Source: an uncultured Candidatus Sumerlaeota bacterium (GTDB lineage: Bacteria; Sumerlaeota; Sumerlaeia; MVZB01; JAJFLK01). Taken from it: DNA of 64,000 bases. The notes below the pieces were generated by a model. That model saw nothing but the letters and a program-made list of their open reading frames with translations. It was not told where the DNA came from and ran no database searches. The translations under genes and the position numbers were made by a program. The stretch lies in the NCBI GenBank assembly GCA_964463045.1, contig CAYXAU010000013.1:2188-66187 (forward strand). The letters run 5' to 3'. Below are positions 4,672 through 59,210 of this stretch, piece by piece; positions within the stretch are counted from its first letter, which is position 1, and each line of letters starts with the position of its first letter.

Positions 4672-4769
4672 GATCGCAGGCCCCGCCGTTCTCCATACCT
4701 GACGTTCCAACCAACGCCGTCCTTCTGGCGAATGCGGAGGAAGCGGAGTCACCCGACGCACCCGGCTCT

Positions 4770-5039
4770 TTAAGAACCCGAACCCGGAGGCGGGGGAAGC
4801 TTCTCGATGGGCAACTCAATCATTACAGGATGATACAAAAGGTGAATAGAAATCCCGAATTTGCGGGCGAAATAGTGGACCATTCGACGTGAAATCTCCG
4901 CCCCAAGAACGTGAGCCTCCTGAATTTCCCCCCTTGCTAGGATGTACATTCGTTCGCCGGAACCCATGGAAACTGACACGCCGGGCGCCCGAAGGACCGC
5001 GATCGCGCTCGTCGTCGGGACTGCCCCCGAGCCGGGCAT
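4770..5039 (-). CDS. Small hypothetical protein (89 aa) with predicted HicA-like alpha-beta-beta-beta-alpha pattern
   Basis: Protein-like composition in a low-GC stretch; ATG 3 nt after the upstream stop (TGA-TTT-ATG). Confidence 0.6.
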   Translation of the reverse strand: MPGSGAVPTTSAIAVLRAPGVSVSMGSGERMYILARGEIQEAHVLGAEISRRMVHYFARKFGISIHLLYHPVMIELPIEKLPPPPGSGS

Positions 5040-12430: not shown

Positions 12431-12453
12431 GGCTCGAAGGGGGCCGGCTTGAC

Positions 12454-25210: not shown

Positions 25211-28200
25211 ATGCCGTCGCCCAAGATCGAGTTCTGGCTAGGTCGGGCCGGCTCCGGCAAGACGCAGGCCTGCGTCGAAGCGATCGCCGGGGAGCTGCGC
25301 CGCGCGCCGCGCGGGACGCCGTTGATTCTTCTCGTCCCCGAGCAGGCCTCAGCGCAGATGGAATACGCGCTGGCTACGCCGCCGGGCGTGGCCGGCTTCA
25401 CGCGCGCCCGCGTGATGTCGTTCAGGCTCCTTCAGGCCGAAGTCTTTCGCCGCGTCGGGGGCCGTCCCGCGCGTTGCCTGGACGAGCGGGGGCGGGTGAT
25501 GCTGTTGCGCCAGGCGATCGCCCGCTGCCGGAGCCGCCTGTGGCTGCTGGGGGGGCGGTCGGCCGGGCCGGGGCTCGCCGAAGCCGTCAGCCGGACGCTT
25601 CGGGAGCTCCAAGAGAGCGGGTGGGGGCTGAGGGAGTTTCGGGCCCGGCTTGAGGCGCAGGCCGGCGGCGACGATCCGGGCGGGGGCGGCTTCGCGAAAC
25701 TCTCGGACCTCCTTACGATCTGGGCGGCTTACGACGACCTCTTGGGGGAAAAGGGGCTGGCCGAGGCGATCGAGTTGCCCTCCGTCGCGGCCGAGCGTCT
25801 GGCCGAGTGGGGTGGCGTCGCCGACGCTCAAGTCTGGGTGGATGGCTTTGCCTCCTTCACCGCGGCCGAATTCAAACTGTTGATGGCGCTCCTCGGGGGG
25901 GCCCGGTCAGCGGCCCTTACGCTCTGCCTCGACCCTGAGGATCAGACCTTCAGGCGGCGACAATCGGGAGCGGCGACACCGGCCGAGGGGCTCGTGCGGG
26001 TCGGGCCGGAGCGGGTTTTTGAGGAAATCGAGAATCATTACTTTCACCTCAAAGCCCGAATTCAGCAGGCCGGGTGGCCGACCGTGGACATCAGCTTTCC
26101 CCGGCGGAGTCATCCGACTCGCGCGGCCCACGTCACGCCGTTGAGCTTCCTGGAGGCGGAGGTCCTCACGCGCCTCAACCCCAGCCGCTTTCCCGATGCG
26201 GATCGGCCGGAGGGGGCCGCGCCGGTCTGGCCCGTCGGACCGATCGAGCTCGTCGAGGCCGCGGACCGTCGGGCCGAGGTCGAAGCGATCGCCCGGCGGA
26301 TCGCCGCCCTGGTGGCGGCGTCGGCTGAGCCGGGGTCGCGCCCGTTGCGTTGGTCGGATATGGCCGTCGTCGCTCGGGACCTGACGGAGTACGGGCCGCT
26401 GGTCCGAGAGGTCTTCCCTCGGTTCGGGATTCCTTTCTTCCTCGATCAGGGGCGTTCGCTGGCCTCGCATCCGATCACCCGCCTGCTCACGGCGGCTCTG
26501 GCCCTCGTCGAGGGGCCGACGCGGACGGAAACGGTGAGCCGATATCTCAAGAGTGGGCTCGTCCCGCTGGCGGACCCCGAAGACGCCGCCCGGCTGGAGC
26601 GGCTGGCGCGACGGCGACGGCTGACCGGGTCCGACTGGGGGAACCTCCGGCGGTGGGTCGGGCCGCGCCATGGACAGCCGGGGCCATCCACCAAGGAGGA
26701 GGTCGAGGCCGAATGGCTCTTCCAAGTCTGGGCCGAGGCCTGGGCCCCGGTTGAGGCGCTGGGCGCGGCGCTCGCGGCGCTGGAGGCGGGCGACGGGCCG
26801 ACACAAGCCGACGGAGCCCCCGGAGGCGCGGCCGAGGCGGGCTCATCGCCGGCGCGGGCGCTCTGGGCGTTCCTGGAGCGGCTGGGGGCGCGCCAGAAGC
26901 TGGAGCAATGGGTCGACGAAGCCCTCCAGGCCGGCGAACCCGAGGCGGCGCTCCTTCATCAGGAGGCCTGGGCCGAGCTGGTCGCCTTCCTGGAGCGATT
27001 GGAGGAACTCGGTCTGCCGGGGCCGGTGCCCGCCGCTGGGGCTGGGTCCGATTCAACCGGGGCGGTCCCCTCGGCCGAGGGCCTCGTCGCGACGTTGACG
27101 GAGGCGCTCGCCGGGGCGCTTTCGGCGGCGCGGGCGCGCTTGATCCCGCCGGCCGTGGAGCAGGTGATCGTGGCCTCGGTGGAGCGCTCGCGGCTGCCCA
27201 ACGTGCGCGTGGCGTTCGTGCTCGGGCTCGCCGAAGGGGAGTTTCCGCGAACCCAGGAAGAGGATCCGCTTCTGAGCGACACGGAGCGGGAGGCGCTCGG
27301 GACGGCGCAGCAGACGCTGGGGCGACATCGGACGGCGCGGCTGAATCACGAACGTTATCTGGCTTATATCGCGCTCACGCGACCGTCGGAGCGGCTCGTG
27401 CTGACTCGGCCCATGGCGGATAGCGGGGGGCGCCTGAACCCCCCGTCGCCGGTCTTCCGCGCCGTCGCCGAGGCGTTCCCCATGGCCCCCCGCGGGACGC
27501 CGCTCCCCTCGGCAGCGAATCTCGCGCCCGTGCTTCCGGAGGAATGGGGCCGGATGGTTGTTGAAGCCTCTCATCGGGCCCGGGCCGGGATGAGCCCGGC
27601 GGTCATCGGCCAAGCCCTCGCCGGGCCGCATCCGCTCTGCGCGGCGCTTGAGGGGCCGGCGGCCGATGCGGCACGGCGCCGGATCGAGCGCACGATCGCG
27701 GCGCTGGATTGGCCGCCCAGGGGGAACCTCGAGCGAGAACTGGCGCGGGCGTTCTGGAGCGAGCGGCCCCGGCTGGCGGTGACGGCGCTGGAGACGCACG
27801 CGGCCTGTCCTTTCAAGTTCTTCGCCTCGAACATGCTGCGGCTGGAGGAACCGGCGGAGCCGCTGCCGGGTCCGCTGGAGATGGGGCAGGTGCGGCATCG
27901 GTTGCTCGCGGCGTTGTTTGCGAAGCTCAAAGGGGCGGAGGGGCTCGATTGGGGAGGCGTCGACCTCGCCGAGGCCGACAAGGCGATCGACGAGGCGGCG
28001 GCGGAAATTCGGGCCGACCTCCTGGGCGGCAGCCTGGGGGCCGACGCCCTGACCCAAAAACTCGTCGAATTCGTCATCGCGGAGATGAGGGTGTTGCTGC
28101 CGGCGCTCAAGGAGGTCGGGCGGCGCAGCCGGCTGCGGCAGGTGGAGGCTGAGGGCCCTCTGGCCGGAAGTCTCGTTTTGGACGCCGGCGAGGGACTCGC

Positions 28201-48430: not shown

Positions 48431-50272
48431 ATGGACGACATTGACCCCATCGGCGGCTTCGACGGCCCGGCTGACGTGAAGCGGCAGGCGAGGGCGCCCG
48501 CCGGCGGCGTGACGAACCGCTCCGGCGAGGCGGGCGCCGCGGAAAAGCAACCCCTGGGGCCAGCGGCTGAAGCCGGCGGGGGTTTCGTCCGGCTGGATCG
48601 TCGCGCCTTCGGCAAGCTGATCGCCGGTCTGGCGGCCCTCCGTCTTGCCCGCTGCGAGACCCCGCTGGCGGCTCAGGAGGTCCAACTCGCGGAGATCACC
48701 GAGGCGACCGTGGCCGAAGCCGAGCGGTTGGCCGGGCTCGCCTTCACCCCCGAAGAGCGCCGCCTGACGCTGACGGGCCTCCAGCGGTACCTTCGCGGCT
48801 ATGACCAAGTCCGGGCCCTGCGTCTCGGCAACGACGTCCCCCCGGCGATGATGTTTCACGCCGAACCGTGGGCCGAGCCTCGGCCGGAGTTGCCGCCGTC
48901 GAGGCCCATCCCGATCGAGCCCTGGCGCGGCGAACCTCCCGCCGACCCCGAGTCCCTCGCCTACTTGCCCGTCGTCGACTTGGGCCGCCTGATCCGCGCC
49001 GGGAAGATCGGCCCTGTCGAATTGACGGAGCTTTACCTGGCGCGACTGCGCGAGATTGGCCCCAAACTCAATTGCCTCGTGACGCTCCTGGAGGATTCGG
49101 CCAGGACGGCGGCGGCCCAGGCGGAGGCCGAACTCCGCCGCGGGTACGATCGTGGCCCCCTGCACGGCATCCCCTGGGGCGCGAAGGATTTGTTCGCCGT
49201 CCCCGGCGCGCCGACCACCTGGGGCGCCGCCCCGTATAAAGATCAGGTCCTGGAGGCGACGGCGACCGTCGTCCGCCGGTTGACCGAGGCGGGGGCGATC
49301 CTCCTCGCCAAGCTCTCGCTGGGGGAGCTGGCTCAAGGCGATCTCTGGTACAACGGCCGGACGCTCAACCCCTGGAAGTTGTCCGTCGGCTCAAGCGGTT
49401 CCTCGGCCGGGCCCGGGGCGGCCACCGCGGCCGGGCTCGTCGGGTTCGCTCTGGGGACGGAGACGCTCGGCTCGATCGTTTCCCCCTCGACCGTCTGCGG
49501 GGTGACGGGCCTGCGGCCGACGTTCGGTCGCGTCAGCCGCCATGGAGCGATGGCCCTGAGCTGGACGATGGACAAGATCGGCCCCATGGCCCGTTCGGCC
49601 GAGGATTGCGCCCTCGCCCTGGCTGCGATCCACGGCCCCGACGGGCTGGATCCGACGGTCGTGGCGCGCCCCTTCCTCTGGCCGACGAAGGTTGATCTGA
49701 GCCGGTTGCGGTTCGGCTACGCCGTCCGCGAGTTCGAGGCCGTTTCGGCCGATTGGGCCCGCGAGCTGAACGCGGCGGCGCTTGATCAGTTGCGTGCCCT
49801 GGGGGCGCGGCTTGAACCCGTCGAACTGCCTGAATTCCCCCTGGGGGCGATCCGGATGGTCCTGACGGTCGAGGCGGCGGCGGCCTTCGACGACCTGACG
49901 CGGAGCGACCGCGACGACCTGATGGCGGCCCAGGCGCCGGTCTCCTGGCCCAACGCCTTCCGGACGGCTCGCCTGGTGCCCGCCGTGGAGTATCTTCAAG
50001 CGCAGCGCGCCCGCTGGCTGCTGATGCGGGCGATGGCGCGGTTGATGGAGGATTGGGACGTGCTGGTGGTCCCATCGCGCGGGGGGGCTTCGCTTACGCT
50101 GACGAACCTGACCGGGCATCCGCAACTGGCCTTCCCTCATGGCTTCCATGAGGGTTTGCCGCAGGGCATCTCGCTCCTGGGGCGGCCATTCGAGGAATCG
50201 ACGATTCTGGCCGTGGGCCGCGCCTATCAGCGGGCGACCGATTTTCACGCCCGTCGGCCGCCGATCGCCTGA
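48431..50272 (+). CDS. Amidase signature family enzyme (GatA-like fold) with N-terminal extension
   Basis: HGIPWGAKD, GSSGSSAG, GTETLGSIVSPS; GGAGG RBS; possible Tat motif DRRAFGKL. Confidence 0.88.
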   Translation: MDDIDPIGGFDGPADVKRQARAPAGGVTNRSGEAGAAEKQPLGPAAEAGGGFVRLDRRAFGKLIAGLAALRLARCETPLAAQEVQLAEITEATVAEAERLAGLAFTPEERRLTLTGLQRYLRGYDQVRALRLGNDVPPAMMFHAEPWAEPRPELPPSRPIPIEPWRGEPPADPESLAYLPVVDLGRLIRAGKIGPVELTELYLARLREIGPKLNCLVTLLEDSARTAAAQAEAELRRGYDRGPLHGIPWGAKDLFAVPGAPTTWGAAPYKDQVLEATATVVRRLTEAGAILLAKLSLGELAQGDLWYNGRTLNPWKLSVGSSGSSAGPGAATAAGLVGFALGTETLGSIVSPSTVCGVTGLRPTFGRVSRHGAMALSWTMDKIGPMARSAEDCALALAAIHGPDGLDPTVVARPFLWPTKVDLSRLRFGYAVREFEAVSADWARELNAAALDQLRALGARLEPVELPEFPLGAIRMVLTVEAAAAFDDLTRSDRDDLMAAQAPVSWPNAFRTARLVPAVEYLQAQRARWLLMRAMARLMEDWDVLVVPSRGGASLTLTNLTGHPQLAFPHGFHEGLPQGISLLGRPFEESTILAVGRAYQRATDFHARRPPIA

Positions 50273-50295
50273 GGACGGAACGTGAGGCAGAACGG

Positions 50296-50422
50296 ATGAA
50301 CCCCCAAGCGGCGAAGAGAGGAGGAAATCGGGGAAACCGGAAGGGAGCTTCTTCGTCCGCGGCGTGGCGCCCGCTATCGTCTCCGTCGCGCTTACCAGGG
50401 GCCGGGGTTCCTGGGCGGTTCA
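50296..50422. repeat. Palindromic element, family A, at the 5' end of the sialidase ORF
   Basis: ATGAACCCCCAAGCGGCGAAG ... CTGGGCGGTTCA. Confidence 0.55.
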
Positions 50423-51492
50423 GTTTGCCGTCTCGAAGGCTCATCAGGTTCTTCACGCTCGGCCTCGGAGGCCGTTGGCTGGTCGTTCTGAGCGTTTTGG
50501 CCGCCTGGCCGGTGGCGGCCCAGGAGGCATCCATGCGCGTCCTCGCCCGCGATTTTCTTTTCGCCGAGCCTCCATTTCCCTTTGCGCACACGCCGACGCT
50601 GTTCGAGGTCGCCCCGGGCCGCCTGATCGCCGGCGCGATCGGCGGGCCCGCCGCGCGCGATCCCGCCAATGCGGTCTGGATCGTCCATCATGACGGGAGG
50701 CGATGGGGGCGACCGGTCAAGGTCACCGATTGGCCGGTGGCCTGCTGGAATCCGGTCCTGACGCGGAATCCGCGCGACGGTGAACTCCTGTTGTTTTACA
50801 AAGTCGGGCTCTCGCCTCAGGTGTGGACGGGGGCGCTCGCGCGATCGACCGACGAGGGCCGAAGCTGGAGCCCGCCGGAAATCCTGCCGGCGGGGTTGAC
50901 CGGCCCCGTCCGGTCGAAGCCCCTGGCGCTGGAGGACGGGGCGCTCCTCTGCGGCGACTCGGTGGAAAGCTGGGAAGCCTGGAGCTGTTGGGTCAACCTG
51001 ACGCCCGACGGCGGGCGCACGTGGAGCCGTTTCGGGCCGATCGTCTACCCGGGCCAGCCCCACGGTCTGATCCAGCCGACGCTGTTCTGGTCGGACGCCG
51101 CTCGGACGATGCTCCGGATGCTCATGCGGCCGACGGAGAAGATCGGGCGCGTCTGCCAGAGCCAATCGACTGACCTGGGGCGCACGTGGAGCCCCGCCCG
51201 GGCGACCGAGTTGCCCAACCCCAATTCGGCGATCGACGCCGTCCGGCTGCGCGACGGGCGGATCGCCCTGGTCCACAACGACACGACCTCCGGGCGGGAG
51301 CGCCTGGCGCTCAGCCTTTCCGCCGACGGCGGGCTTTCCTGGGCGCGGGCGCTGGTTCTGGAAGAGGAGCCGGGCGAGGAGTTCTCTTACCCGGCGGTGA
51401 TCGAAGACGCCGCCGGGCGGCTCCAGGTGCTCTATACCTGGAAGAAACGCAACATCGGCCACGTCACGGTCGCCGCCGGCGACCCACGTTGA
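50296..51492 (+). CDS. Sialidase-family (BNR/Asp-box) beta-propeller protein
   Basis: Asp-boxes STDEGRSW, TPDGGRTW, STDLGRTW, SADGGLSW; IQPTL, PNPNS, FSYP. True start may be TTG at 50425. Confidence 0.85.
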   Translation: MNPQAAKRGGNRGNRKGASSSAAWRPLSSPSRLPGAGVPGRFSLPSRRLIRFFTLGLGGRWLVVLSVLAAWPVAAQEASMRVLARDFLFAEPPFPFAHTPTLFEVAPGRLIAGAIGGPAARDPANAVWIVHHDGRRWGRPVKVTDWPVACWNPVLTRNPRDGELLLFYKVGLSPQVWTGALARSTDEGRSWSPPEILPAGLTGPVRSKPLALEDGALLCGDSVESWEAWSCWVNLTPDGGRTWSRFGPIVYPGQPHGLIQPTLFWSDAARTMLRMLMRPTEKIGRVCQSQSTDLGRTWSPARATELPNPNSAIDAVRLRDGRIALVHNDTTSGRERLALSLSADGGLSWARALVLEEEPGEEFSYPAVIEDAAGRLQVLYTWKKRNIGHVTVAAGDPR

Positions 51493-51507
51493 GCCCCTTG
51501 GGCCGTC

Positions 51508-51619
51508 ACGGACGAACCCCGAGGGGGTTCGATCCGTCAGCCCAGGGTCAGCGCCAAGCGCGCCACCCGGGGTAGCGTCCCCGCGCGGCGGCGGTTTGCC
51601 CGAACCCTGAAAGGGTTCG
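51508..51619. repeat. Composite REP/BIME-like module (family B) between convergent genes
   Basis: Hairpins CGAACCCC-GAG-GGGGTTCG (51513-51531) and CGAACCCT-GAA-AGGGTTCG (51601-51619) flank CCCAGGGT...ACCCGGGG. Confidence 0.75.
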
Positions 51620-51658
51620 ACCGAGCGATCCATCCGCGCTCAGAGCGAAGCCGTGAGG

Positions 51659-52573
51659 CTATCTCAACAGGGGGATCGGGTCGACCGGCGCGGCGTCCTT
51701 GCGGATTTGAAAAAAGAGCCCGCCGCGGCCATTGTCGGACGGGCGGCCGACGGTGGCGATCGTCTGGCCGCTCTCAACGTCCTCGTCCGGCCGCACAAGC
51801 AGCCGCTCATTATAGCCGTAAACGGTCGTGAATCGGTCCCCGTGATCGACGATAACCGTCCGGCCGTAGCCGCGCAGCGCGCCGGCATAAATGACGCGCC
51901 CGGCGCGGGCGGCCCGCACCGGCGTTTCGATCTCGGCGTCGATGAGGACGCCGTTAAAGGGCGCGCGTCGTTCGGCGCTGAAGGCGCGGCTCACCCGGCC
52001 TTCTACCGGCCACCGAAACCGGCCCGGCGCGGCCTCGGCCGCGGGTCCGGCGCGGGCGGCTTCCGACAGCGTCGGCGTCCTTTCGGGGGTGTCCGTCTCC
52101 GGCCGCGCCAGCGCGGTCAGCGCCGCACCGCGCCGCTCGCCGGTTTCATCGAGCGCCACGTTGGGGTGCGCCGGTCGCGGCGCGCGGAAAACGGGCAGGC
52201 CGTCGAAGAACTCCGGCGAAGGGGCGACCTGCGGGACGCTCGCGGGGTCCCGATTGATCTGTTCCAGGATGCGGCGCAACTCGGCCCGGTCGTGGACGGG
52301 CGGGATGTAGATCGGCTTGCCCTGGGGGGGGCGCTCGCCAACGCCGAACCGGTTGAGCTGGCCCACCAGCTCCGGGTCCCGTCGATACGTGTCCGCGATT
52401 TGCTGGATCGTCTGCCGCCCGTCGGCGAAATGATACCACCCGTTGCGATAATCCTGGTTCGGCAGGGGGATCGGGGGGGGGATAGACGTTGAGGGGCCGC
52501 CGCCGACGCAGGCGGCGACGAGGACGGCCGCGCCGGCCAAGGCCGGCAGCTTCATCCGACAACGACGCTTCAT
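51659..52573 (-). CDS. NlpD-like lipoprotein: LysM-like region plus degenerate M23/LytM domain
   Basis: Lipobox VAAC; RFRWPVEG, GYG..VIVDH, V..G..IA.VG; Zn ligands replaced (FNGVLI, GLFFQIR). Confidence 0.8.
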   Translation of the reverse strand: MKRRCRMKLPALAGAAVLVAACVGGGPSTSIPPPIPLPNQDYRNGWYHFADGRQTIQQIADTYRRDPELVGQLNRFGVGERPPQGKPIYIPPVHDRAELRRILEQINRDPASVPQVAPSPEFFDGLPVFRAPRPAHPNVALDETGERRGAALTALARPETDTPERTPTLSEAARAGPAAEAAPGRFRWPVEGRVSRAFSAERRAPFNGVLIDAEIETPVRAARAGRVIYAGALRGYGRTVIVDHGDRFTTVYGYNERLLVRPDEDVESGQTIATVGRPSDNGRGGLFFQIRKDAAPVDPIPLLR

Positions 52574-52775
52574 CACCTGCGGCACCACCTTTCAGCGCGA
52601 ACTGCCAACCAGATGTATCGGCCGCGGGAACGGGGAAGTTAAGCGTTTTGAGCCGTCGCGAGGCGTTGAAGCGGAAAGCCTCTCCCTTCGGGAGCCCGAT
52701 CGGGAGGCCGCAGGGCCCGAGCCAAGCTAGCCCAACCCGGCCGGCCGATAAAGCCCGAACGGCCGGGAGGCCGGG

Positions 52776-52781
52776 TATAAT
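52776..52781 (+). promoter_or_regulatory. -10 box upstream of uvrA
   Basis: Perfect TATAAT ending 40 nt before the ATG; no clear -35. Confidence 0.4.
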
Positions 52782-52821
52782 GGAAGGCCGGGCTGCCGGC
52801 GGCGGCCCGGCCCCATAGACC

Positions 52822-55578
52822 ATGTTGGACCGGATCGAGCTTCGAGGGGCGCGCACTCACAACCTCAAAGGGGTTTCGTGTGTCTTCCCGCATGGGGGTC
52901 TGACCGTGGTGACGGGGGTTTCCGGATCGGGGAAATCCTCGCTGGCCTTCGACACGCTTTACGCCGAAGGGCAGCGGCGCTACGTGGAGTCGCTCTCGAC
53001 TTACGCCCGTCAGTTCCTTGAGCGGATGGAGCGCCCGGCGATCGAGAGCCTGACGGGGCTTCAGCCGGCGATCGCGCTCGAACAACGCAACGCCGTGCGC
53101 AGCGCCCGCTCCACGGTCGGGACGGCCACGGAAATCCACGACTACCTTCGGCTCCTGTTCGCGCGGCTGGGGCGGACCGAATGCCCAACCTGCCGCCGGG
53201 AGGTCCGGCCCGAGACGCCGGAGTCGGCCCTCGCCACGCTGATGAGCCTGCCGCAGGGGACGCGGCTCATCGTCGTGGCGCCGACGGGGATCACGGCGGC
53301 GCGGCTGACGCCGACGCTTCGAGCCGAGTTGATCCGGGCCGGCTACCACCGCCTGTGGGATGGGTCGGCCCTCGTGGACCTCGAAGCCGAAGCGACGCCG
53401 TCGGACCCGCACGTCCCCCTGGCGATTGTGGTCGACCGGTTGGCGGTGGCCGAGGCCGATCGAACGCGACTCCACGCGGCGCTTCAGACGGCCTTTCAGG
53501 CGGGCCAGGGTCGCGCCGTCGCCGAAGTCCCCGATCGGGGGGAGCGCTTTCCATTCTCGGCGGGGATGATGTGCGACGGTTGCGGCGAGCGTTTTCCGGC
53601 GCCGGAGCCGCGGCTGTTTTCCTTTGATAACCCGCTCGGGGCCTGCCCGGCGTGCCAGGGGTTCGGCCGGATTATGGAATTGGACCTGGAGAAGGTCATT
53701 CCGGACCCGGAGCGCTGCATCGAGGACGGCGCGATCGCCCCCTGGAACTCCGAAGGCAGCATCGAGATGTACGACCTGCTGCGACGGCGGACGACGCCTC
53801 AGCAGATTCCCCGGCTCAAGCCCATCGCCGCTTTCACGCCCGCGCAGCGGGAAAACCTGATCGAAGGCGTGGGTCGGTTCCCCGGCGTCCGCGGCTTCTT
53901 CCAGTGGTTGGAATCCAAGAAATACAAGGTCCAGGCCCGCGTGATGCTGGCGCGCTATCGCGCTTACCGCACCTGCCCCGTCTGCGGCGGGGCGCGCCTT
54001 CGGCCCGAGGCGCTGAACGTCCGGCTGGCCGGGCGGACGATCGCCGAGCTGGCGAGCGAGCCGATCGGCCCGCTGGCGGATTTTTTCGGTCGGCTCGCCT
54101 TGACCGCTCGCGAACGGCAAATCGCCGGCGGGCTCATCGAGATGCTCGGCCTCCGGTTGAGTTACCTCCAGGAAATCGGGTTAAGTTACTTGAGCCTGGA
54201 TCGGCCGACGCGGACGCTCTCCGGCGGCGAGGCCCAACGGATCAATCTGGCCGCCTCGCTGGGTTCGGGGCTCACGCAGACGCTTTACGTCCTGGACGAG
54301 CCGACGGTCGGGCTTCACGCGCGCGACACCGAACGGCTCATCCGGACGCTCCAGGGGCTGCGCGATCTCGGCAACACCGTCGTCGTGGTCGAACACGATC
54401 TGGACGTGATCCGCGCGGCCGATCGGCTGATCGATCTCGGCCCCGGCGCCGGCGAGGCCGGCGGCGAGCTTCTCTTCGAGGGTCGGCTCGATGAAATCAA
54501 CGGCCTCACGACGCCGACGGCCCGCCACCTGGCGGGCTATCCCGTCCCGCCGGTCCCCACCCGCGGCCGGCCGGCCAAGGGATGGATTCGAATCCTGGGC
54601 GCCCGCGGGAACAATCTCAAGGGGCTGGACGTGGCCATCCCGCTGGGGGGGATCGTCGGCGTCACGGGCGTTTCGGGGTCGGGCAAGACCACACTGGTCC
54701 GGGACACGCTGACGGCGGCCTGGCGCCGGCGGCGCGAGCTGGCCCCGGTGGAGGCGGCCCCTTGCCGGGCGATCGAGGGGCTCGAAGCGCTCGAAGAGTT
54801 GATCTGGGTGGATCAGACGCCGCTGGCCCGCTCCAGCCGCTCCAACCCGGTGACCTACGTCAAAGCGATGGACCCGATCCGAGACACCCTGGCGTCGACG
54901 CGCGAGGCGCGGGCGCTTGGCCTCAAGCCAGCGGATTTTTCCTTTAACGTCGAGGGGGGCCGATGCCCCACCTGCAAGGGCACCGGCTATCAGACGATCG
55001 ACATGAGGTTCATGGCCGACGTGGAGGTGTTGTGCGAGAGCTGCGACGGCCGACGCTTCCGCGATCGTGTGTTGGTTTATCGCTATCAAGCCAAAACCAT
55101 CACCGATATCCTGGACCTGACGGTCGACGAAGCGGCTCGATTTTTCGCCGGGGAGCCGCGCGTCGTCCGAGCGCTCCGCCCGCTGCGCGAGGTCGGGCTC
55201 GGTTACCTTCGGCTCGGTCAGAGCACCGCCACGCTCTCCGGCGGCGAGGCCCAGCGGCTCAAGCTCGCCGGGCGCCTGGCGCGGATGCGGGACGGCCGCG
55301 GATTGTTGCTCGTCTTCGACGAACCGACGACGGGCCTTCACGCGGCCGACGTGGAACGGCTCCTGCGCGTTCTGCACGATCTGGTCGAGCGCGGCTGCTC
55401 GATCCTCGTCGTGGAACACAACCTCGATCTGATCGCTTCGGCCGATTGGATCATCGACCTGGGGCCCGAAGGCGGCGAGGGGGGCGGCCGCATCGTCGCC
55501 GAGGGACCGCCGGCGCAGATCGCGCGCTGCGAAACCTCCTGGACGGGCCGGCATCTCCGGCGTCGGTTCGGATTCTGA
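52822..55578 (+). CDS. uvrA: Excinuclease ABC subunit A (possibly a paralog)
   Basis: GARTHNLK, GVSGSGKSSLAFDTLYAEGQRRY, two LSGGEAQR signatures, zinc fingers CPTC/CDGC, DEPTVGLH and DEPTTGLH. Confidence 0.92.
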   Translation: MLDRIELRGARTHNLKGVSCVFPHGGLTVVTGVSGSGKSSLAFDTLYAEGQRRYVESLSTYARQFLERMERPAIESLTGLQPAIALEQRNAVRSARSTVGTATEIHDYLRLLFARLGRTECPTCRREVRPETPESALATLMSLPQGTRLIVVAPTGITAARLTPTLRAELIRAGYHRLWDGSALVDLEAEATPSDPHVPLAIVVDRLAVAEADRTRLHAALQTAFQAGQGRAVAEVPDRGERFPFSAGMMCDGCGERFPAPEPRLFSFDNPLGACPACQGFGRIMELDLEKVIPDPERCIEDGAIAPWNSEGSIEMYDLLRRRTTPQQIPRLKPIAAFTPAQRENLIEGVGRFPGVRGFFQWLESKKYKVQARVMLARYRAYRTCPVCGGARLRPEALNVRLAGRTIAELASEPIGPLADFFGRLALTARERQIAGGLIEMLGLRLSYLQEIGLSYLSLDRPTRTLSGGEAQRINLAASLGSGLTQTLYVLDEPTVGLHARDTERLIRTLQGLRDLGNTVVVVEHDLDVIRAADRLIDLGPGAGEAGGELLFEGRLDEINGLTTPTARHLAGYPVPPVPTRGRPAKGWIRILGARGNNLKGLDVAIPLGGIVGVTGVSGSGKTTLVRDTLTAAWRRRRELAPVEAAPCRAIEGLEALEELIWVDQTPLARSSRSNPVTYVKAMDPIRDTLASTREARALGLKPADFSFNVEGGRCPTCKGTGYQTIDMRFMADVEVLCESCDGRRFRDRVLVYRYQAKTITDILDLTVDEAARFFAGEPRVVRALRPLREVGLGYLRLGQSTATLSGGEAQRLKLAGRLARMRDGRGLLLVFDEPTTGLHAADVERLLRVLHDLVERGCSILVVEHNLDLIASADWIIDLGPEGGEGGGRIVAEGPPAQIARCETSWTGRHLRRRFGF

Positions 55579-55579
55579 G

Positions 55580-55696
55580 ATGAAGCGCCGCTGCCAAGAC
55601 GCCGGGACGCCGGTAGAGGCGACGGAACCCGCGCCGCGACCCGCCTCTTTTCTTCGTCCGTTTGTGTCTTCGTGGTACCACTCTTCGCCGTGGTTA
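55580..55696. repeat. Palindromic element, family A, forming the 5' end of the amidase ORF
   Basis: Right-arm motifs TTTGTGTCTTCGTGGT (55661-55676) and CTCTTCGCCGTGGTTA (55681-55696); left GCCAAGACGCC. Confidence 0.5.
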
Positions 55697-57538
55697 GCGT
55701 TGCTGATTGTTACTTTCCCGGCGACCGCCGCCCACGCGGCCGCGCCGCCGGAATTGTTTGAACGCCTGTGGCGCGCCCCCGGCCCTCATCAAGACGGCCC
55801 GGGAGCCCCCCGATTGCTCGTCGTCTATCCCCAGCCGGAGACTATCGTCGGCTACGATCACGATCGGACCCGATATGCGGCCCGCGTGGAGCCCCCCGAA
55901 GCCTCGGTCTTCATGGATGGGACGCCGCTGCGCGTCTGGGAAGGGGGCGTCGTGACGGGACTCGTCGAGCTCCCCGTCGGCGCGCGCGAGATCGTGCTGA
56001 CCGCCACGCACGAGGGGCGCTCGACGACCGTCCGCAGGCGCGTCATCCGCCAGGAGCGGCTCCTGGGCCCGGCGGCCTGGCCGCTCGCGTTTCATCCGGC
56101 CCGACCCGTCGAGCCGACGGGCGAGTTCTGGCTTCGCCCCGGCAGCTCGCTCGCGCTGACGCTGCGGGCCAGCCCCGGGGCGGAAGCTACTTATCGCCTG
56201 GGGGAAACCGGCCCGTGGTTGCCGATGAACCCGATCTCATCGAGCCCGCTCGACGGCGGCCGCTACGCTGCCACGCTCACGGTCCAGGGCGTCGACGCCC
56301 CCCCCGGCCCGGTCGAGCCCATCCGATTCAGAATTGAAGGTCGGCCGCCGGAGGGAGGGGCCGCTCAGCGCCGGGAGTTGACATCGGCCCTTCGCGTGCG
56401 CCGGTTGCCCTCGGATTATTCGCTCACCGGCATCGTCGGGACTTACCGGGCGACTTTCCTCAAAAACCGCAGCGATTGGCAGCGGTGGGGGAATTGGACG
56501 AGCGGGACGGTGTTCCCCGTGGGCGAGCTTCTGGGCGATCGCGTGAGCGCGCTCCTGCCCGTGGGCGCAAGCGGTTACCTCGAAAGCGCCTCCGTGCGTG
56601 TGATCGAAGCCGGCCATGCCGCGCCGCATCTGGGAGCGCCGCATGTAACTTTTTCGGATTACAAAGGGGAACCCCAAAGGGTGAGTGTTACCTGGGAGGT
56701 GCCGCATCCGCTGGCCTGCGTGTTTCATCCGGGGGAAACGGGGGGGGAGCTGATCATTTCGCTTCTGGGGGCGGCCTCGGCCGTGCCGGGCCGGTTTGAG
56801 CGTCCCGGGGGGGCGGGGCTTTTCTCGGTCGAAGTTCGCCCGGCGGGCCTCGGCCAGCCGCCGAGCCTCGCCGTGGCGATCGGGGACCGGCCGCTATGGG
56901 GTTACGATTTCGGCCCGACGGCGGCCGGAACGTTCAGCCTGAAGGCGCGGACGCGGCCGCGGCTCGGCCGGCCCTCTCAGCCGCTGGCCGGCTTCAGAAT
57001 CGCCGTCGACGCCGGTCATGGCGGCGCCGACCTCGGGGCGTTGGGGCCTTCGGGGCTGGCCGAGGCCGACGCCAATCGCGTGCTGGCCTATTGGGTCGCC
57101 GAAGAGCTGCGCGGAGGCGGAGCCGAGGTCCTCGAGATTCGCCCCGGAGAAGCCGGGGTGGAGCTGGACGATCGCGTGCTCGTCGGCCTCCGAGACGATC
57201 CGGACCTGTTTCTCAGTCTGCATCACAACTCCGTAAGCCCGACGACGGACCCGCTGCGGGACACGGGGCCTATCGTCTTTTATCACTATGATCATGCGCT
57301 CGGGCTGGCGCGCCGCATCGCCGAGGAACTGGCCGCGGCCTGGGGCGCCGGGACCCCCCCGCGCGTCGTGCGGGAGAATTTCCGGGTCAACCGCAACTTG
57401 AGCTTCTGCCCGTCGATCCTCATCGAGGGGGGGTTTGTGTGTAACCCGAACGATGAGCTGCGCCTGCGCTCGGTCGAGACGTATCAGACGGTGGCGCGGG
57501 CGATCGTCCGGGGCCTGCTTCGCGAGCTGACGGACTGA
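55580..57538 (+). CDS. N-acetylmuramoyl-L-alanine amidase (Amidase_3) with long N-terminal beta-rich region
   Basis: IAVDAGHGG, EADAN, FLSLHHNS, SILIEGGF (Zn ligands intact). Confidence 0.85.
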   Translation: MKRRCQDAGTPVEATEPAPRPASFLRPFVSSWYHSSPWLALLIVTFPATAAHAAAPPELFERLWRAPGPHQDGPGAPRLLVVYPQPETIVGYDHDRTRYAARVEPPEASVFMDGTPLRVWEGGVVTGLVELPVGAREIVLTATHEGRSTTVRRRVIRQERLLGPAAWPLAFHPARPVEPTGEFWLRPGSSLALTLRASPGAEATYRLGETGPWLPMNPISSSPLDGGRYAATLTVQGVDAPPGPVEPIRFRIEGRPPEGGAAQRRELTSALRVRRLPSDYSLTGIVGTYRATFLKNRSDWQRWGNWTSGTVFPVGELLGDRVSALLPVGASGYLESASVRVIEAGHAAPHLGAPHVTFSDYKGEPQRVSVTWEVPHPLACVFHPGETGGELIISLLGAASAVPGRFERPGGAGLFSVEVRPAGLGQPPSLAVAIGDRPLWGYDFGPTAAGTFSLKARTRPRLGRPSQPLAGFRIAVDAGHGGADLGALGPSGLAEADANRVLAYWVAEELRGGGAEVLEIRPGEAGVELDDRVLVGLRDDPDLFLSLHHNSVSPTTDPLRDTGPIVFYHYDHALGLARRIAEELAAAWGAGTPPRVVRENFRVNRNLSFCPSILIEGGFVCNPNDELRLRSVETYQTVARAIVRGLLRELTD

Positions 57539-57567
57539 GCTCGCCCCAGGCTCCGCGCCGCCCGAGT

Positions 57568-57700
57568 ATCGGGAGCGGCGATTTGCCGCTCGGTCGCGGC
57601 ACTTTCCCTGACAGGACATGAGCACAGGGGGCGTCGGGAACGGCAAGTCGGCGGACGGCTACACCCAAGCTCAGCGGAGGGGTTATTGGTATAAGCGGGC
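57568..57700 (-). CRISPR. Putative degenerate CRISPR array remnant: two repeats and two spacers
   Basis: R1 57568-57603 (36 nt) and R2 57633-57665 (33 nt) match at 21 of 33 aligned positions with one 3-nt gap; 29-nt spacer between them; about 26-35 nt of non-cas sequence between R2 and the cas fragment. Confidence 0.45.
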
Positions 57701-58264
57701 GTTGGCCCGCTCCCAGGCCTGCTTCTCATCCTGCCAGGCGCGGTGATGGCGATCCCAGTTTTCGCGGGCGCGCCGGTAGTGGGCCCGGACCCATTCGGAG
57801 GCGGCCTTAACGAGGATCATGACGTGGGGATCGCTGAGCGAGCGCAGGCGGTCGAGGAGCGCCGCAGCGGTCCGACTGCGCGGCAGGCCGGCGCAGGCAA
57901 CGGCGGCGTCGCGGACCGGTGACTCGATGTTTGAACCCAAGAGCGCTTCCGGACCCGACCAACCGGCGGCGACCTTGAAGACCTCGAGGCGACCCCGATC
58001 CGCGGGCGCTTCATCCTCCTCAAGGCCGCAGGGGGCCGGGCCGGTGAAGAAATCCCAAAGAGGGCCAAGCGAAGGATTCTGAGGCTCGCCCCTGGGCCGC
58101 AGCGCCATGAGCCACTGGCAAATCTCCGAGACGTCGCGATTGAACCGTTGGAAGTGTTCTCTCAAGCGGCGCACGTCGCCCTTGAAGGCTTGCTTTGTCT
58201 GTCCCGCTCGACGGCGTAGGGGTCGGACGAGCGTCCGGGATTGGGCATATGGCTGTTTCGGCAT
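57683..58264 (-). pseudogene. cas12g: Truncated type V-G CRISPR effector Cas12g: N-terminal ~190 aa only, no RuvC
   Basis: Collinear motifs versus Cas12g1 as recalled: RTLVRPL/RTLVRKL, GQTKQAF/GQSKQEF, FNRDVSEICQW/FNADVSGVCQW, LWDFF/FWKFF, HVMILVKAASEW/HRMILAKVAAEW, YRRARENWDRHHRAWQDEKQAWE/YRRAHQNWERNYEEWKKEKQEWE. Confidence 0.8.
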
Positions 58265-58373
58265 CGCTTCGTGACCCAGCCGATGGAGAGGTCGAAGTGC
58301 CGGGCGATCCGGGCCCGCCCGGCTGCCTGGGCCGGTCCGCCAGCCCACCGCGCCGGGCATCCTCGAGCGGAAC

Positions 58374-59210
58374 TTACGGCCTGGAGCGGATCCGCTTGGC
58401 CAGCCAGAGGTCGGGTTTACCGAAACCATGGGCGTCGGGGATGACGCCGACGAGGGCGAACCCCACGCGCCGGTAAAAGGCAAGCTGGTGAGTGCCCTCG
58501 GCCGGCGGGCGGAGTTCGGACGCCGTCGGCAACGGATGGGCGCGGGCGCCGTCCGTCGAGGTCGCCGTCGGGGACGGGTGGGCGCGCGTTCCGCCCGGCG
58601 AGGCCGGCGTCGGACTAGCCCGGGGGCCGTCGGTCGCGCCCGAAGCCGGAGCCGCTGCGGGTCCACTAGCCGGGCGCAAGAGCGACGGCGACGGGGCCGG
58701 CGCGGGGCCGGGAGCGGCTTCATCGGGCCCGGGGCCACCCGCCGCGAGCGCGGCGAGATGGGCCAGCGGGTCGGGGTAGAGGTCTTTGCCGCCCAGCGGC
58801 GTCGCGCCGGTCTCGTCGTCGGCCCCGACGAGGAGCGTGTGATATCCGGCGGCGATCGCGGCGGCTTCCAGCCCCTGGAGGAGCTTCCGCCCGATCCCGC
58901 GGCGCTGATGATCCGGATCGACGGCCAGCGGGTGAATCTCCAGCACGTGGCCCGGATAGCGCGGCTCGCCGCCGATGATCCCCGTCACCTCGCCGACGAT
59001 GTCGAGCGCCACCAGCAGAATCGTCTCCCGCCGCCGGGCCAGATCGATCAGCTCGCCGAGGGCGGCCTCCAGCGTCGGCCAGGCGTCGGTGATCGGCTCC
59101 ATCGCGCGGTAAAGAACGCGAGCGGCCTGGGCAAGCTGGACTTCGTCAGTGGCGGAAAAGGGAACAATCTCAACCGGCATCGGACTCTTGAGCGAGCGTG
59201 GGGAGGACAT
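58374..59210 (-). CDS. GNAT acetyltransferase, AAC(6')-Ia-like family, with ~80-aa low-complexity insertion
   Basis: LEIHPLAVDPDHQRRGIGRKLL, LLVGADDE, FYRRVGF.LVGVIPDAHGFGKPDLWLAK; GGAG RBS. Confidence 0.82.
   Translation of the reverse strand: MSSPRSLKSPMPVEIVPFSATDEVQLAQAARVLYRAMEPITDAWPTLEAALGELIDLARRRETILLVALDIVGEVTGIIGGEPRYPGHVLEIHPLAVDPDHQRRGIGRKLLQGLEAAAIAAGYHTLLVGADDETGATPLGGKDLYPDPLAHLAALAAGGPGPDEAAPGPAPAPSPSLLRPASGPAAAPASGATDGPRASPTPASPGGTRAHPSPTATSTDGARAHPLPTASELRPPAEGTHQLAFYRRVGFALVGVIPDAHGFGKPDLWLAKRIRSRP

Follow-up and report, generated by a model that had tools for sequence, protein, structure and literature searches.

A truncated cas12g gene beside degenerate repeats, probably the relic of a type V-G CRISPR–Cas locus

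Degraded and orphan CRISPR–Cas loci take the form of a truncated effector gene beside a few degenerate repeats in a housekeeping chromosomal context. The locus described here, from a 64,000-nt stretch of DNA of an uncultured Candidatus Sumerlaeota bacterium (hereafter the window), differs from such loci in nothing but its uncommon subtype, V-G. Its effector gene encodes a new, divergent and truncated member of the Cas12g family; of Cas12g only the N-terminal WED strand and subdomain I of Helical 1 remain, up to the boundary between subdomains I and II. In Cas12g, subdomain I of Helical 1 spans aa 34–200 and subdomain II, which carries CCHC and HCCC zinc fingers, spans aa 201–382; deletion of aa 232–355 alone abolishes Cas12g activity (PMC10511118).

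A preliminary description of this DNA had called Cas12g known from few loci. Our searches contradict this and indicate a family larger than is usually stated. An exhaustive phmmer search over 1.84 billion representative proteins (clusters at 50% identity) returned 40–41 Cas12g homologs, all with the match at their N-terminus; about 20 of these clusters are full-length (724–933 aa), the others being shorter and for the most part truncated or frameshifted. Scanning JGI metagenome contigs with an alignment of the N-terminal region, we found 42 Cas12g loci, most of which encode the whole protein and carry a conserved tracrRNA and 36-nt repeats. In most of the intact loci, cas12g is followed by ~200 nt and then by the repeats at a period of 65–67 nt. 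Between the cas12g stop codon and the array, on the same strand, lies a conserved RNA of ~135 nt that contains an anti-repeat and a run of T, presumably the tracrRNA (examples are the gaps at 4734–4936 in locus L019 and at 12449–12650 in L016); its place agrees with the reported position of the V-G tracrRNA (PMC10707612).

The nearest homologs of the window's fragment, in loci L015, L018/L019, L024, L037 and L046, are 43–45% identical to it and come from DNA with a GC content of 0.61–0.70. Unlike the window, these loci carry full-length cas12g (frameshifted at family-profile position 208/209 in L018/L019) and, where the contig reaches, a tracrRNA and an array of at least 5–8 repeats, none of which is intact in the window. 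Their 36-nt repeats, of the form GGTG...CGACACC, are the type most similar to the two repeats that we describe below. In all databases searched, nothing closer than 43–45% was found outside the population's own contigs, and a word-index search of 5.8 billion protein clusters returned only the window's own protein. Intact V-G systems, which the preliminary description had expected in relatives, were found at 43–45% identity; no close relative with an intact allele was found.

Broken copies also occur elsewhere in the family. N-terminal-only or frameshifted cas12g genes are present in L001, L022, L047, L004, L018/L019, L026 and L046, as judged from a family HMM of 785 positions that we built and ran on six-frame translations of the loci and of the window. 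In L001 (= L041, JACXTT010203096.1; 540–1049), L022 (881–2077) and L047 (3611–3892), as in the window, the 5′ part of cas12g runs into unrelated DNA with no tracrRNA. These three genes break at HMM positions 210, 400 and 98, respectively, and, unlike the window, keep no recognisable repeats; L001 also lacks the first 30 residues. Given these other N-terminal-only remnants, the case is less remarkable than the preliminary description implied. The frameshift that splits cas12g at HMM 208/209 is the same in two metagenomes (L018, 10627–10650; L019, 2950–2973). Breaks and splits cluster at HMM 158–256, with the window at 193, L001 at 210, L002 at 208, L004 at 169, L026 at 158 and L032 at 256.

An N-terminal fragment of Cas12g

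The truncated cas12g ORF occupies 57683..58264 on the minus strand (193 aa plus stop; WED-I N-terminal strand region and Helical 1 subdomain I), with its ATG at 58264–58262 and its TAA at 57685–57683. Codons 1–189 (57698..58264, minus strand) are derived from cas12g, as delimited by the end of the HMM alignment, at profile position 192–193, and by a fork in the assemblies. As the preliminary description had recognized, with coordinates and a quoted sequence that agree with ours, the frame is nested in a longer, GTG-started ORF (57683..58738); it stays open for 433 codons in the six-frame translation of the window. The GC content of the 193-aa frame by codon position (0.71/0.52/0.76) is coding-like, with a third-position value slightly below that of the neighbouring genes (0.80–0.85). 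In alignments, the start codons of Cas12g family members coincide with the ATG at 58264, the homologous, native start. Public gene calls (P0001/P0051) begin at GTG 58174 and give 163 aa, and so miss 30 family-homologous N-terminal residues (YxxxRTLVRxL...). In exact look-ups, no record was found of the GNAT, LexA or 193-aa protein of the window.

The homology of this fragment to Cas12g is real and far beyond chance. First, a phmmer search against all PDB chains matched Cas12g only (6xmf, 8i3q and 8i16; E=4.9e-40), with query residues 2–189 aligned to Cas12g residues 14–201 and the next match at E ~1. Identity to Cas12g1 (6XMF, 6XMG, 8I16, 8I3Q) is ~40% over residues 14–201, collinear and with a single 1-residue gap, and all of the Cas12g1 motifs that had been listed in the preliminary description are present in the HMMER alignment. 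Second, comparison with Cas12 profiles gave a significant match to the PADLOC Cas12g model PDLC01702 (E=1.6e-55, residues 2–191 against profile positions 2–191 of 754), and our family HMM, run on the six-frame window, matched over profile positions 1–192 (E=6e-57). Pfam and NCBIfam gave no matches to the 193-aa fragment; models for this Cas12g region are absent from both. Third, an AlphaFold2 model of the fragment, computed from a 21-sequence alignment, reached a pLDDT of 84.9, and its predicted fold matched Cas12g chains alone in the PDB (Foldseek, TM 0.69–0.72 normalised to the query). The predicted helical subdomain resembles that of Cas12g1 with a TM of 0.72 and an rmsd of 3.6 Å, so that structure comparison also bears out the earlier assignment.

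Within the fragment, 39 of the 51 family-conserved positions (76%) are kept, and full-length members keep 68–98%. The 23 other family N-termini in the alignment all carry an arginine that is valine here (R148V), and several further polar residues conserved in the family also differ. Losses are equal at polar and hydrophobic conserved positions (6/24 versus 6/27) and give no signal.

The remainder of the protein is missing. Homology to Cas12g, of which the preliminary description had noticed the abrupt end, stops at the stop codon of the ORF, and nothing beyond family-HMM position 192 was found in six frames of the 64 kb, in which other matches had E>0.5. With stops masked, no downstream frame continues the Cas12g match through the 144 bp that follow the ORF, and tblastn of a Cas12g1 sequence against the window aligned residues 18–203 only. 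Faint by-eye resemblances to cas12g after the stop (PLR*AW, RRPLCS) were rejected, as they had no HMM support. Compared with Cas12g1, only the first ~190 of 767 residues exist in the window. Absent from it are Helical 1 subdomain II (aa 201–382) with its two zinc fingers (CCHC and HCCC), WED-II, Helical 2, RuvC with the catalytic residues D513/E655/D745 and the Nuc zinc finger; none of these was detected in six frames of the 64 kb. Full-length relatives match PF07282 (Cas12f1-like_TNB, the C-terminal Nuc/TNB zinc finger).

Nor is there space for these parts, as had been pointed out before, in the 144-bp gap between the ORF and the gene on its low-coordinate side. This gene, at 55580..57538 on the plus strand and convergent with the fragment, encodes a complete N-acetylmuramoyl-L-alanine amidase (Pfam Amidase_3, profile positions 1–173 of 174). 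It follows uvrA (52822–55578, plus strand), the stop codon of which ends at 55578, 1 nt before the amidase start. On the other side, a GNAT acetyltransferase gene (58374..59210, minus strand) has the same orientation as the fragment and lies 109 bp upstream of its ATG, preceded by lexA (59850–59233, minus strand). No terminator-like site was found between the GNAT gene and the fragment.

The guide RNA component is missing as well. A tracrRNA covariance model built from 14 family loci recovers the held-out loci L030, L024, L004, L021 and L031 with E values of 1e-7 to 1e-21. Run on the window with filters off, it gave a best match of E=8 at 26259, an unrelated place, and Rfam found nothing in the window. 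Because the zinc-finger subdomain, Helical 2, RuvC, Nuc and guide RNAs are all absent, it would be impossible in principle, on the evidence of the sequence, for the fragment to act as an RNA-guided nuclease.

Vestigial repeats and the junction

Two degenerate repeats, which the preliminary description had not seen, lie within the 144-bp gap after the ORF, on the cas12g strand. We scanned the whole window on both strands with a position weight matrix (PWM) from 15 family repeats. The best match in the window, R1 (GGTGTAGCCGTCCGCCGACTTGCCGTTCCCGACGCC; 57630..57665, minus strand), begins 17 nt after the stop codon and scores 13.1 bits, compared with 6.8 bits for the next. The fifth-best match, R2 (GCCGCGACCGAGCGGCAAATCGCCGCTCCCGATACT; 57565..57600, minus strand), scores 4.3 bits and follows R1 across a spacer-length gap of 29 nt (CCCTGTGCTCATGTCCTGTCAGGGAAAGT; 57601..57629, minus strand), with a start-to-start distance of 65 nt that equals the family period. 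Working family repeats score 18–45 bits. Together, R1 and R2 score 17.5 bits; no other pair in the window exceeds −4.8, and the highest pair score among 150 simulated windows is 10.1.

Identity counts point the same way. R1 shares 24 of 36 positions with the family repeat nearest to it, close to the family's own median of 23, and R2 agrees with the L024 repeat at 23 of 36; the two agree with each other at 21 of 36. Among 127,930 window positions, 4 and 8 reach 24 and 23 identities, respectively, from which the joint chance of R1 and R2 is, as a rough figure, ~1e-6. A search with nhmmer and a repeat HMM did not rank R1 (E=74), and repeat finders saw no array in the window. With this caveat we retain the repeat call, on which the ungapped PWM, the counts of identities and a spacing of exactly 65 nt concur.

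We read R1 and R2 as the probable last two units of a former array, a vestige and not a functional array. Of these, R2 would have decayed further, being the terminal repeat. The stretch of 31 nt that separates R1 from the breakpoint (57666..57696, minus strand) shows no Cas12g homology and supplies the last codons of the ORF (LYQ) and its TAA at 57685–57683; its length is that of one spacer of the family arrays, and it is therefore probably a former spacer. Neither of the two spacer-length stretches had an exact match in viral contigs. The position of two vestigial V-G repeats directly after the stop codon indicates that the locus was once complete in place.

The junction between cas12g and the repeats is carried, at ≥99.9% identity, by contigs of three to four other assemblies from at least two samples. 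Locus L006 (9,323 bp, JGI 3300009444) corresponds to positions 48497–57819 of the window with 7 SNPs; the amidase stop, R2, R1, the stop codon of the ORF and 135 nt of the ORF all lie within it. The junction is likewise spanned by contigs of ENA ERZ27245685 and JGI 3300022563. On this recurrence in several assemblies we take the junction to be real and not a misassembly, a worry raised in the preliminary description. Moreover, the junction haplotypes differ at 57637 and 57655, both in R1, so that the junction predates the divergence of these strains. The informative contigs were reached through P0053, a 99% identical GNAT variant.

Origin and fate of the fragment

The window thus holds an effector gene cut short, its remainder absent from the vicinity, together with adjoining degenerate repeats and a recurrent junction, and these features characterize a relic locus. 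We consider it likely that this is a decayed type V-G CRISPR–Cas locus in a housekeeping context. In the ancestor, cas12g, a tracrRNA and a CRISPR array would have lain between lexA–GNAT and the 3′ end of uvrA–amidase. One or a few deletions in place would then have removed cas12g from codon ~190 to its end (~1.8 kb), together with ~200 nt of tracrRNA and leader and all but the last one or two repeat–spacer units, for a total loss of ~2 kb or more. The break, which homology and the assembly fork both place at about 57697/57696, would have fused codon 190 to a former spacer, adding three more codons and a TAA, and what remains would be a 193-aa ORF, presumably functionless, and two degenerate repeats. 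The sequence before the break, CAACGCC/C, resembles the 3′ end of R1, CGACGCC/C, a likeness that would make a microhomology-mediated deletion possible. The preliminary description had likewise proposed a new Cas12g ortholog that lost its RuvC-containing part by deletion, and the absence of the remainder from HMM searches, the recurrent junction and R1 and R2 support it.

A first further reading, compatible with the relic reading of the window itself, is that the deletion is polymorphic, with a longer and possibly intact cas12g allele on the same backbone; we regard this as a possibility of limited likelihood. It is suggested by the way in which the assemblies break. Three contigs with LexA, GNAT and the ORF (L049–L051, from three assemblers) end exactly at 57697, where the ORF-side sequence ends in ...GCCAACGCCC, and the amidase-side contigs (L006, L052 and L053) overrun this point by 141, 99 or 123 nt. 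The overrun varies by assembly; where it is 141, the contigs have ‘k141’ in their names. Because one end is fixed while the other shifts from assembly to assembly, we take this to be a de Bruijn fork, with a second continuation after 57697. On the low side of the junction, no matching fork was found of the kind that a simple insertion or deletion bubble would give, and the other path thus fails to rejoin at 57696. In addition, neither the search of 5.8 billion clusters nor the exhaustive search found a protein that shares the last 40–47 residues and then continues as Cas12g past 57697, and a strain SNP at 57696 in a complex bubble, with the SNPs at 57637 and 57655 nearby, could give the same breaks. 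Candidates for the second branch are thus a longer allele, a different rearrangement and a mere SNP haplotype.

If the relic reading has a weakness, it is that the ORF is not visibly decayed: the 193-codon frame is intact, the start is native, 39 of 51 conserved positions are kept and the GC pattern is coding-like. These features, together with an end at a subdomain boundary and a confident predicted fold, also suit a retained module. On this second reading, which we judge improbable, the fragment is kept as a small standalone protein (RNA-binding, regulatory or a dominant-negative decoy), expressed by read-through from lexA–GNAT. The shared orientation and the lack of a terminator-like site in between would allow this, and the proportion of conserved columns (76%) is in the range of working orthologs. 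Near-identical strains have no SNPs in the 582-bp ORF, compared with two in R1, and breaks occur nearby in other loci (L001 at 210, L002 at 208, L018/L019 at 208/209).

Several points speak against this reading. Long open frames are common at 69% GC, and this one is open well beyond the fragment itself, for 433 codons. At the background rate of ~0.7 SNPs per kb, none would be expected in 582 bp. The other truncated loci look like ordinary decay, and L001 lacks its N-terminus too. Within the fragment itself, R148V and the other changed conserved polar residues speak against constraint, and the WED strand would be orphaned from the rest of its sheet. As no homolog above 43–45% exists outside the population's own contigs, conservation as a standalone protein cannot be shown. 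The argument that the ORF is too well preserved for neutral drift, based on a neutral clock from the divergence of R1 and R2 that gave a probability of 2–7% for no stop at d=0.2 in simulations, was rejected, because a terminal R2 is dispensable even in a live array and the ancestral sequence of R1 is unknown. A retained function of the fragment is possible but unsupported.

A wider version of retention is slightly less likely still: WED-I and Helical 1 subdomain I would be a separable module that bacteria repeatedly keep after loss of the nuclease, here as a 193-aa protein made from the lexA–GNAT transcript that, for example, binds structured RNA or interferes with a related effector. If it were true, the clustering of breaks at HMM 193–210 (the window, L001, L002 and L018/L019) would reflect selection and not chance.

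That the locus is an assembly artefact, a chimeric join with an intact gene elsewhere in the genome, is very improbable. A 96,575-bp JGI/IMG contig does equal 36,645 + 60,029 − 99, that is, two shorter contigs joined at the junction point over a 99-nt overlap. However, the junction also lies inside single amidase-side contigs, in three assemblies and at least two samples, flanked by up to 141 nt of the ORF and, in the other direction, by 60 kb, and its haplotypes differ within R1. Finally, capture by Cas12g of an ancestral standalone helical protein, suggested by nothing more than the self-contained nature of the helical subdomain, can be dismissed almost with certainty: all 40 homologs among the 1.84 billion representatives carry the match at a Cas12g N-terminus, the first 20 residues are the WED strand of a sheet completed by downstream Cas12g residues, and V-G repeats adjoin the ORF.

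We therefore return to the relic reading and regard the locus as a dead defence locus, an ordinary relic of a rare system and neither a working system nor a new kind of system. It documents the decay of the rare RNA-targeting type V-G in a chromosome and adds one divergent, unusable sequence to the Cas12g family; its interest is low unless the fragment proves retained or the deletion proves polymorphic. On the latter point, the fork at the junction suggests that a single aquifer population may contain the locus in both states; if confirmed, this would show CRISPR loss under way in nature. One source metagenome, 3300009444, is listed in a study that covers Nevada groundwater among other samples (bioRxiv 10.1101/176263).

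Position of the locus beside uvrA

In the three loci closest to the window, a convergent uvrA comes after the array, an arrangement that the window shows too, and uvrA is the only gene shared (L015, 3853–4068; L018, 13122–14420; L019, 5424–8396). The window differs from L015, L018 and L019 in that an amidase gene sits between the array remnant and uvrA, and its UvrA is only 52–58% identical to theirs. The common uvrA neighbour is compatible with an old, inherited position of the cassette. The amidase itself has its best genome match, at 42% identity, in a BRC1 (Sumerlaeota) MAG, with which the window shares no gene order around this gene; other amidase homologs are at most 50% identical. On the opposite flank, the GNAT protein is AAC(6′)-I-like and carries a Pro/Ala-rich insert of ~100 aa (58470–58760, GC 0.80) compared with relatives of 181–201 aa; the insert holds a 42-bp tandem repeat at 58521–58613 and the strain SNPs at 58603 and 58615.
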